Assembly: GCA_964270895.1 (NCBI GenBank)
Contig: OZ185437.1
Length of the DNA stretch: 64,000 nt
Direction: 5' to 3' (one strand)
DNA from: Podarcis filfolensis
Lineage: Eukaryota
Part shown: in pieces, positions 20,521 through 38,680 of the stretch
How the letters are laid out: every line of letters starts with the position of its first letter
How positions within the stretch are numbered: the first letter of the stretch is position 1
Program-made: the position numbers and the translations under genes
Notes under the pieces: model-generated
Told to the model about the DNA's origin: nothing
Seen by the model: only the letters and a program-made list of their open reading frames with translations
Databases searched by the model: none

Positions 20521-20996
20521 GTCTCTGAGCAGGCAACAATATTCAACAAAACAGCTAGTGCAAAATAAAACAATTAGTGTTTTGGTCTGGTCTGATGCTG
20601 GACACCACAGAGAATGAGGCAAGGCTGGGCTGGAGAAAAAGCAAGGCAAGGCTTTGGAGAACTGCAACTTCTTCTTAGGCATTGCAAGGCCAAGGCAGTT
20701 ACCACCACCTACCCGCAACAGCATTATCACACTTCACTCAAAGCTAACAAAGGTTGGGAACAGACAGGCCTTTTGAGCCTCTTGTCTCCAGACCACCATC
20801 TCCAGACTCCATCCCTGTCTAGAGAATGCCAGACCTTTAAAGGGCCAACCCTCTGGCCTGAAGACAGGGACTCCTCCATTCCATAGAACTCTTTCCCGGT
20901 GCACTCCCTGCAGTGCCAGACCGATGATGTGTGATGGGAGGCATTTAGTTCTTCAGGCACAGGGCACAGGGCCTAAGAGAGTCCAGGCTCTGGCCC

Positions 20997-22110
20997 AGGG
21001 GGGCCGCTAGGGGGCGCATCAGAAGATCTCTCCGGCTCACACGAGGTAATTAAGAGGCTGTTATGGGAGTATGCAGCCTCCCTCGTTACCCCAAAGGAAT
21101 GGTGAACGCTGCCTTGCCTGCTGTGCCCATAATTCACCCCCAGATTCGAAAGGGGGTGAGGACACTAGGCACAAAAGCCCTCGTGTGGGTCGGCTCTCCT
21201 GGACGCTGTCTCTGATCTGCGCAGCTAGTTGCGGGAGCTCAAAATAAACAATCAGAACAGAAGCAAACGCACATACTTCAAGCGATGATCGGGAGTAAGG
21301 ACTGCTAACTAAAGGGATCTCTGGGAAGAGGAGCGACGGGCTGGAGTTAACAATAAATCAAGAAGAAGAATAAATCAAGAAGAAGATTCATCAAAGGATC
21401 GGTATGTCGGAGCGAGACTGAAAAGGAGGGGGGGAAAAACTTTTCTTTTTTTGTCTTATATGAGTACCCAATAATCCCCCCCCCCCAAAAAAAAGAATCG
21501 TTGCAATTACTGATCACAAGCAGGAGGAATAAGAACTGTGTGGAAAATAATTACTATGCAAGGACGTGGCTTATGGGAGCATCGGGAAACGAAAGTAAGT
21601 CCTTTGTGATGCAGTCATAAAAAGAGATTTATCATGGCAGGCCCGCCCGCAGGAATCCAGGGGAAGTAGGACTATGGTTGTTACTATGTTGGAGTGTGGG
21701 CTCGGCCTAGCAGGGCCCCCTGAGAAAATTTATGAGGGAGCGGTGGGCCTGGGGAGATCAGGACAGACTGTCGGAATGTTTTGTACAGAGGTGTTGAAAT
21801 GGCATTGGTCTACTTTTATGGCTCTTGGATGAGTGTAAAATCCACACAGGACATAACAACGTTTGTCTTCAACCCGCTTGTGGAGATTATCAGAGATCAA
21901 AAAGAAAGGAGATAACAACAAGAAGATGAGGAAAACAACAAAGAGAAGATTGTTGTAATTAAAGCAGCAGCAAGAGAGACGATCGGATCCCTTTCGGAGC
22001 TTGAAGCATGGGTACCCCCAACAAAAAATTTTAAAATTTGGCTGTGTAATTTGGAATTATTGTTATTTGGAATTAATGTGATGTGATTGGCCTGTTAATA
22101 AAAATTATTA

Positions 22111-22153
<43 letters not shown>
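20997..22153 (+). mobile_element. 1.16-kb non-coding, CpG-rich retro-insertion (probable non-autonomous L1-type element) with 21-bp TSD and (GA)n tail
   Basis: TSD AGAGAGTCCAGGCTCTGGCCC at 20976-20996 and 22154-22174. AATAAA at 22097-22102 then a GA run from 22113. About 20 CpG in the first ~420 bp by hand count. No long ORF. Confidence 0.85.
21001..21019 (+). promoter_or_regulatory. Near-consensus CTCF motif at the 5' tip of the inserted element
   Basis: GGGCCGCTAGGGGGCGCAT versus consensus TGGCCACCAGGGGGCGCTA; the core CCGCTAGGGGGCGC fits the degenerate matrix. Confidence 0.6.
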
Positions 22154-22161
<8 letters not shown>

Positions 22162-22304
22162 CAGGCTCTGGCCCTATATGTCCTGATGCTCTGGGATGTT
22201 TCTCTGGGTGTTCCTAATTCCTGAACCTGAGAACCAACAAGCTACAGCATCTGCATCTTATCAGGATGAGCCCTGATCCAATCCATACCAGTGTGACCAG
22301 TGTT

Positions 22305-37436: not shown

Positions 37437-38680
37437 TCACCACAGCATGTTATGCATTTTCTTTTCTTGCTGGAAACTTCCTTTTGTAAATTCTGCAAGA
37501 TATTTTGAAAGCCGTTGATCAGCAACTTGGCCATAGACCCAGCATCTACTGAACTTCCATTTTATCTGACCCTGCACTCCTAGGAGTGCCAGGTGGCTGG
37601 ATCTAGCCACCCTTTTAATTTTATTTAGTGCCCCCAACCTTGTGTCACTCACAAGCACCAGAGGAAATTGAAAGAGTTGCTGGGCATAGCTGCCCAGTGC
37701 TGCTTGGAATGCTGCCACTATCATCAGGTAAGTGTGCCAGGACTCACTGACAGGAGGGAGCTCACCAGAGGACACTTTGCCCAAGGCCCTCTCAAATCTG
37801 GAGATAGCACTAGATGGAATACCCCCTCTGGTGCTAACCGGAGTCATTTCCACCAGAAGATATTTAGGAGAGGCATTCAACATGCGTTGAGGGTGCACTG
37901 TCAACTGGTTCCAGAATTGTTTTATGTCTTGGAGACATAGTAAAGCTTTCTCTTTATCCACAAATAATAGTGGCATGAGTTTCTTGGAGTTTTCCCATTG
38001 TACTGTGGTGGCTTATAGTGTGTGGGAGGAGCCGTTCATCTCAATGCAGCAATGAGGTTGGGACTATGCAGATGCACCAATTAGCTGCAACAGCACATCT
38101 GCACAACCCTGGTCTCACCACCACCCTGCCCTTCCCAGTAAGTGGCAGTTACATCACCGCCAGGAGGCTATTGCTGTGGCTCCGTCCCATCAGACAAGAG
38201 GCCCCTGATACATGAACTATCCATTCCTCATTCCATCCTTGGAATCTGACTTGTTCAATATGTCCCAGTGACTCTGTTGCAGCAACTCTGTTCTAAAGGA
38301 TGTGTGGTTTAAGAATTTCACCAGGAGTTGACTCATTTGGTACTTCCCATGAACTAAAGTTGCAAGCATTCCTTATCACATCCTACATGCTGTGCATGAG
38401 GTCCACTTCCAGTCAATTAGCTTTCAGTTCAGCTGGGGCATTGGCCACCCTGACTTGTGACAGAGCTGCAGTGCTTAATGCAGTGGAGTGTTTTGTGCTG
38501 AGTGGTGGATCCCATGCTGTTGATGAGTTCCAAGTCCTAGGACTTAAATCTCTTTCTGCTGTCCATTTCTCCACCCTTGGGAATGCTTCCAGCTGAGTCA
38601 TTGATTGGAGCCAAACATCAGTGTCTTCAGTGCCTGACGTGGAATCTGATGAAGTGTGGTAAAGAGAGGCATCCAACTCT
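37437..38680 (-). mobile_element. Decayed coding segment, tentatively DIRS-type retrotransposon ORF1 (gag/LAP2alpha-like)
   Basis: 179-aa and 87-aa minus-strand ORFs with interrupted coding-like sequence between them. VAAFQAALGSYAQQLF resembles, from memory, the conserved (V/I)ANYQA.L..Y...L stretch of vertebrate DIRS ORF1. Confidence 0.35.

Follow-up and report, generated by a model that had tools for sequence, protein, structure and literature searches.

A large family of ORF-less, probably L1-mobilised retroposons with a CTCF-like head in the genome of the lizard Podarcis filfolensis

The stretch of Podarcis filfolensis DNA analysed here (64,000 nucleotides of contig OZ185437.1, referred to below as the window) carries at 20976-22174 an insertion bounded by an exact 21-nt direct repeat (20976-20996 and 22154-22174). 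The insert lacks a long open reading frame, its longest stop-to-stop frames (98 and 108 amino acids) both being antisense and without a Pfam match. As described in the first-pass annotation of this DNA, it is rich in GC and CpG at its 5′ end and in T towards its 3′ end: the first 300 nt contain 55% GC with a CpG observed/expected ratio of 0.66, compared with 0.21 across the window, and T makes up 37% of the last 100 nt upstream of the AATAAA at 22097. The internal tandem repeat and the GA tail reported in that annotation were likewise recovered, the former as a 17-nt unit at 21352-21386 and the latter measured as (GA)23.5 at 22113-22159. Since position 20976 is a T in three of four related organisms, the original target site duplication (TSD) was probably 20 bp, with the twenty-first match reflecting a later change, a refinement of the 21 bp first proposed. 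The parts of the insertion are as follows.

20976-20996, plus strand: left TSD, 21 nt and exact, probably 20 nt (20977-20996) when the element inserted.
20997-21003, plus strand: element start, a 5′ G-run of variable length; G-runs head most copies.
21004-21017, plus strand: CTCF-like motif, matching the consensus at 13 of 14 positions and the chicken HS4 site, as given in PMC6746451, at 12 of 14.
21022-21030, plus strand: remnant of a YY1-type motif, most of which was removed by a 15-nt deletion in this copy.
21004-21212, plus strand: conserved 5′ domain, predicted to be structured, with several hairpins and long-range helices and with compensatory changes across subfamilies.
21213-21984, plus strand: non-coding middle, fast-evolving and purine-rich, from which this copy has lost 32 nt near 21952.
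21352-21386, plus strand: 17-nt tandem duplication, common to the window's subfamily.
21985-22109, plus strand: conserved 3′ terminus; a 16-nt tandem lies within it at 22045-22079, and the polyadenylation signal at 22097-22102.
22113-22159, plus strand: (GA)23.5 array, expanded after insertion at the tail/TSD junction; in organism A the array is shorter and is preceded by an A run.
22154-22174, plus strand: right TSD, an exact match to the left copy.

The window copy is a slightly damaged member of a large family, bearing both the 15-nt and the 32-nt deletion and differing by 2% from the majority sequence of its own subfamily. Sister copies retain the whole YY1-type motif and so, judging by gap count, does the related organism C; having lost this motif, the window copy is probably a dead end. 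In contigs from all four related organisms the left flank is joined to the element, implying an insertion site common to them, and an empty site was not seen among the four. The earlier description of the insertion as young holds only loosely, given its presence in all four related organisms and its 2% distance from the subfamily majority.

A search of the organism's own 1.5-Gb genome, a check proposed with the first-pass annotation, revealed the extent of this family. It returned 1,860 candidates, of which 40 were scored, most of them end-to-end copies at 79-92%. Exact matches across the genome numbered 1,961 for a 20-mer from the 3′ end and 134 for a 3′ 27-mer of older subfamilies, giving at least 2,095 copies, together with 1,228 for a 21-mer that marks intact heads; these exact-motif counts are floors, the reversed-pattern controls being 0 for each. 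For each of the two 3′ motifs (the young 20-mer and the older 27-mer), 30 loci were read, and all proved to be family members. Full-length copies made up 20 of the 30 in the position-ordered young sample, the remaining 10 being 5′-truncated, and most of the 30 older copies were also truncated at the 5′ end.

At least 14 subfamilies, defined by eye from 118 de-duplicated full-length copies, are mutually 59-94% identical, with the members of each lying 1-6% from their own majority at non-CpG sites (1.8% in the small group to which the window copy belongs and 1.0% in F, the largest). Majority lengths range from 1,095 to 1,300 nt, with the longest copies reaching 1,376 nt, and the GC content of the family is 42-46%. 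Across subfamilies both ends of the element are conserved and the middle is not. No ORF is shared among the subfamily majorities, and tblastn gave no match to ORF1 or ORF2 within intact copies, the LINE ORF matches that do occur in family copies being nested insertions only. A frame of 41-79 amino acids running from a conserved ATG was rejected as an ORF, as it shifts between subfamilies. The family trees are ladder-like and multi-lineage, with many supported subfamilies, rather than star-like; and since at least 14 subfamilies have propagated, a single retroposed lncRNA, one of the origins first suggested, is unlikely. No description of such a family appears in the titles and abstract openings of the literature searched, in keeping with the earlier suggestion that it may be undescribed; an automatic consensus of the family may well have been deposited in a repeat library.

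In these trees the inner branches between subfamilies are together about tenfold longer than the terminal branches leading to the oldest copies, which may reflect faster-changing source lineages, purged old copies or recombining lineages. At 102.66-102.77 Mb of G000:C4, identical flanks surround the element in four places (L006, L008, L010 and L011); all four derive from a single insertion, belonging to the window's subfamily, that was copied by segmental duplication. A further copy (L204, G000:C19:16009672-16013033) is nested within a copy of an older subfamily, and is useful for the time order of subfamilies.

Intact heads consist of a G-run and a GC-rich 14-mer followed by AAGATGGC, a YY1-type motif. 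Scored against the CTCF consensus, five of the 14 subfamilies reach 13-14 of 14 positions and the other nine 10 of 14; subfamilies F, D and E have the full 14, and B, C, G and H are among those with 10. Perfect matches are found in 977 family heads, which represent 21% of the 4,712 such matches genome-wide (reversed control, 232). In a tree built from the body of the element only, copies with the CTCF spacing fall into three distinct clades with 100/100 support (the window's group, D/E and F) and two smaller cases, all of them nested among relatives one base shorter. This pattern suggests that the full consensus was gained separately in at least three of the younger clades, although head exchange between subfamilies could mimic such convergence; a one-base insertion in the head would have created the motif. 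If bound, the predicted CTCF sites would add about a thousand strong sites to the genome, and the family may thereby contribute chromosome-folding anchors; a consensus match does not amount to binding, however, and the CpGs that the motif contains may be methylated.

There is close to an even chance that the CTCF-like head is instead incidental, a by-product of one-base slippage in the G-run of a GC-rich promoter, and that it is methylated and unbound in vivo. The gain takes a single inserted base in or beside the G-run, nine of the 14 subfamilies spread without the motif, and L1 5′ UTRs of this genome also contain CTCF-like words. What speaks for a function is the retention of the consensus at 14/14 through a further change of the core (GGG to GTG) in two clades, together with the presence of the perfect form in F, the youngest and largest subfamily.

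The 5′ domain has features expected of a maintained RNA fold. Over the 5′ 245 alignment columns, 18 of the 56 pairs in the consensus structure have changed on both sides, with 96% of cells able to pair, and neither shuffling (none of 500 as high) nor sliding the partners (3-13 such pairs) reproduced this figure, although the counts overstate significance, since the changes were counted in the very alignment that yielded the structure prediction and the rows are related and share changes. The best helices are marked by swaps between U-A and C-G and between G-C and A-U, in both directions and with hardly any breaks, and the compensatory swaps fall in different clades. The 5′ domain of the window copy, folded alone, gave z = -1.39. 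Taken together, the modelled 5′ base pairing is conserved, and such a structure would act at the RNA level, through stability or through loading onto L1 particles. Neither the CTCF/YY1-type head nor the conserved 5′ RNA structure figures in the first-pass annotation.

The head also bears on the origin of the family. The longest (1.3-1.4 kb) and most diverged subfamily (8.8% pairwise) starts GACTTCCG-N18-ATGGC, with the same spacing as the young L1 examined in this genome. In the account given in PMC5381506, lizard clade-1 L1s start GACTTCCGGTGN8ATGGCG and have 5′ UTRs of 1,268 ± 198 nt with 45% GC, and mammalian L1s start with a G-run and a YY1 motif. The family is like these lizard 5′ UTRs in start motif, ATGGC spacing, length and GC content; it differs from them in a body that cannot be aligned, in ending with a polyadenylation signal and an A tail of its own, and in having no ORF1 behind it. 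The resemblance to L1 starts extends over the first 30-55 nt, and the body of the element does not align to L1. Head alignments to the L1 at L088 scored 25-31, against shuffle maxima of 24-26 (500 shuffles), beating or equalling the best of these, and those to three other L1 heads did not score above the shuffle maximum. Element length declines along the tree from the longest, L1-like-headed group to F, which suggests, without proving, a root at the former; that subfamily is probably the oldest, although the tree is unrooted, so that the L1-like head could be derived.

Searches for an L1 relative of the remainder of the element gave little. No alignable 5′ UTR was found among the L1 upstream regions compared (23 + 40 + 29 + 19, many of them lacking a true 5′ end), and 36 L1 3′ regions showed no match to the 3′ end of the element beyond the A/T tail. 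The best signals were one low-complexity nhmmer match (E 1e-4) and one shared C/G hairpin (E 0.012-0.1), the position of which differs; a covariance model run on 38 L1 upstream loci recovered one hairpin only, with E 0.012 at best. The 20 L1 3′ fragments that were followed upstream proved short and unrelated, a zf-RVT profile search for a parent gave one match, and the genome searches found no autonomous parent. A GACTTCC start in L157 was rejected as an L1-type start, as it belongs to the TSD of that locus. We put at about even the chances that the ancestor of the family was an L1 5′ UTR, from a lineage now extinct or unsampled.

Somewhat unlikely by comparison is an origin in the host itself, either in a Pol II non-coding RNA or in the 5′ end of a gene, whose ETS and YY1 promoter happened to lie within the transcript; the logic would be SVA-like, without L1 ancestry. 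Such an origin would fit the lack of L1 homology in the body, the strong conserved structure, which suits a former non-coding RNA, and the finding that an apparent host gene start (L331) bears the same pair of motifs; but no exon-wise or single-copy parent was present among 30 loci read, in a search reaching its weakest matches, Rfam gave no match, and head spacing, length and GC content agree with lizard L1 5′ UTRs as described in PMC5381506.

Whatever its ancestry, the element has little in common with a Pol III transcript. A B box was absent from all 14 subfamily majorities and an A-box-like word present in three, and each majority contains 4-7 internal runs of four or more T. With these features and no Rfam match, the family, which also exceeds the length limit, falls outside the definition of a SINE as a Pol III-transcribed element of less than 700 bp (given in PMC3531059). 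An HDV-like ribozyme was considered and dropped after no Rfam match was obtained. Pol II would transcribe the element, with the YY1 motif in use, and L1 enzymes would then copy the ORF-less RNA in trans.

The marks left at insertion sites point to the same partner. Clear TSDs are present in 74 of the 82 copies that have both ends (a set including a few paralogues and miscalls), and 51 of these 74 are 16-19 bp long; two full-length L1s of this genome have TSDs of 16 bp (L088) and 15 bp (L428). Targets are varied, with a T or C followed by a purine-rich start: the -1 base is T in 42, C in 22, G in 6 and A in 4 of the 74, A being under-called here by the TSD caller, and +1 is a purine in 71. Copies carry a polyadenylation signal and an A-rich tail, and L1s with intact ORF2 are abundant in this genome, whose L1 start motifs, like the SINEs in the flanks, indicate a lizard host. 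L1 as the partner is therefore well supported by TSD, tail and target marks, and it is likely that the family comprises ORF-less Pol II retroposons mobilised in trans by L1. The initial classification of the window copy as a target-primed, non-autonomous, L1-type insertion is in this way borne out across the family by TSDs, A-rich tails, cut sites and 5′ truncations.

That a LINE other than L1 (from the RTE/Bov-B, Vingi, L2 or CR1 clade) mobilises the family, which would make this an ordinary bipartite non-autonomous LINE, appears very unlikely: other LINE clades do occur in this genome, and PMC5786205 reports ORF-less bipartite non-autonomous LINEs only for RTE, Ingi, Vingi and R2, but the polyadenylation signal and A tail, the 16-19 bp TSDs and the T|purine-rich targets all agree with local L1s, and none of 60 3′-anchored loci runs upstream into a LINE ORF without an intervening TSD. 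At L339 there is LINE sequence upstream, yet the family copy has its own TSD, and the heads that precede coding sequence at L125/L176 and L212 were rejected as an autonomous parent, being nested LINE insertions instead.

The GA tail of the window copy is a local quirk that grew by slippage. In a set of 66 copies, obtained after removal of 12 named paralogues and doubtful calls, only two tails terminate in at least two GA units, so that the GA tail does not stand as a family trait, and 44 have a T run followed by an A run. In the organism A ortholog, which lies in one contig at single-copy depth, 22109 is followed by TAAAA, a GA stretch and the TSD, the array being about (GA)9 compared with 23 units in the window copy. 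It is the T-run/A-run form of the other tails, the variety of targets and the A run and shorter array of the ortholog that point to slippage, which the first-pass annotation had offered as the alternative to microsatellite targeting. In the simplest history, the element inserted at T|GAGAG, producing a 20-bp TSD and a short A tail of the usual kind, and slippage followed.

Target-specific Tx1 elements insert into a fixed microsatellite or repeat. That the family is a Tx1-like, microsatellite-targeting or GA-tailed retroposon can be set aside as highly improbable, for although the window TSD starts GAGAG and a short tandem unit spans the tail/TSD junction in 9 of 66 copies (versus 2.9, maximum 7, with TSDs swapped), these units vary by locus, mirroring the first target bases, and of seven targets starting GAGA the window copy is the only one with a long array. 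Slippage at an ordinary tail removes the novelty first proposed for the locus, and the tail matters little, except as an example of microsatellite growth at a tail/TSD junction. What stands out is the family.

A fuller scenario, rather unlikely in its entirety, would have an L1 promoter region shedding both ORFs to become a self-propagating, structured Pol II RNA parasite of L1, the first ORF-less derivative in the L1 clade, with the CTCF motif gained repeatedly because it aids transcription, and with about one fifth of the strongest CTCF sites of the lizard genome seeded in this way.

Several known systems resemble the family in part. HAL1, as described in PMC5753468 and PMC5786205, is likewise non-autonomous and A-tailed and uses Pol II and L1, as the family would, and differs in encoding ORF1p, whereas the family has no shared ORF. 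Bov-A, RTESINE, WALLSI3, Vingi-N and RIME-type elements are similarly non-coding, self-propagating and Pol II-type with a LINE-like 5′ start; the family differs from such bipartite LINEs in its L1 marks, its greater length and the lack, in our searches, of a parent matching both ends. The SVA and LAVA elements of apes are also long, non-coding and mobilised in trans by L1 (according to PMC5753468), but SVA is a composite, whereas the family shows no Alu, VNTR or ERV module, its 5′ domain instead being structured and its head L1-like. With regard to CTCF, the account in PMC5880236 describes how a one-base change in Mus caroli turned a spreading B2 subfamily (B2_Mm1) into a CTCF carrier present in thousands of copies; that carrier is a short SINE of the Pol III type whose binding has been measured, in contrast to a 1.1-kb Pol II-type element with recurrent gain and a motif known from sequence. 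Sauria/Squam1 and Squam3 are non-autonomous retroposons of the same genomes, among which microsatellite tails occur, Squam3 differing in its length of 218-271 nt and in having no tail (as reported in PMC7983390), and squamate SINEs as described in PMC7983390, PMC13295347 and PMC10670947 are all far shorter than the family.

If the proposed reading of an ORF-less retroposon mobilised by L1 is true, the family would represent a further kind of L1 parasite, with features intermediate among those of SINEs, HAL1 and SVA: a Pol II-type element that is long, non-coding and mostly full length. Its conserved 5′ fold would then be a testable signal for a non-coding RNA competing for L1 proteins. The family would also extend to a reptile the expansion of CTCF motifs by retroposons, which has until now been measured mostly in mammals; sister subfamilies that differ in the one-base gain would serve as internal controls.

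A number of minor observations were made at other loci. CTCF-like words on the minus strand, a short way upstream of ORF1, were noted by eye within the last 200 nt of the L1 5′ UTRs of several lineages, at L088, L322, L325 and L300, and the window contains two further 13/14 matches to the CTCF consensus outside the element, at 38135 and 48889. The family copy at L176 (G000:C1:84624280-84633280) is interrupted by a 4.7-kb LINE of another clade, whose ORF1-like, endonuclease and reverse transcriptase frames are only 25% alike to L1. At L380/L427 (G000:C19:31902500-31910473, minus strand) a 5′-truncated F copy with its A tail abuts a 5′-truncated young L1, followed by an older L1; there is no TSD around either the family part or the whole unit, which may be a template-switch chimera or a set of nested insertions. 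A high proportion of the full-length L1 ORF1/ORF2 matches fall on the 43-Mb contig G000:C19, as do many segmental duplicates, a pattern that would be expected of a W-like, low-recombination chromosome. Also on G000:C19, an L1 fragment (L096, 37261200-37270499) lies among long frames, which we take to resemble endogenous retrovirus gag, pol and env.
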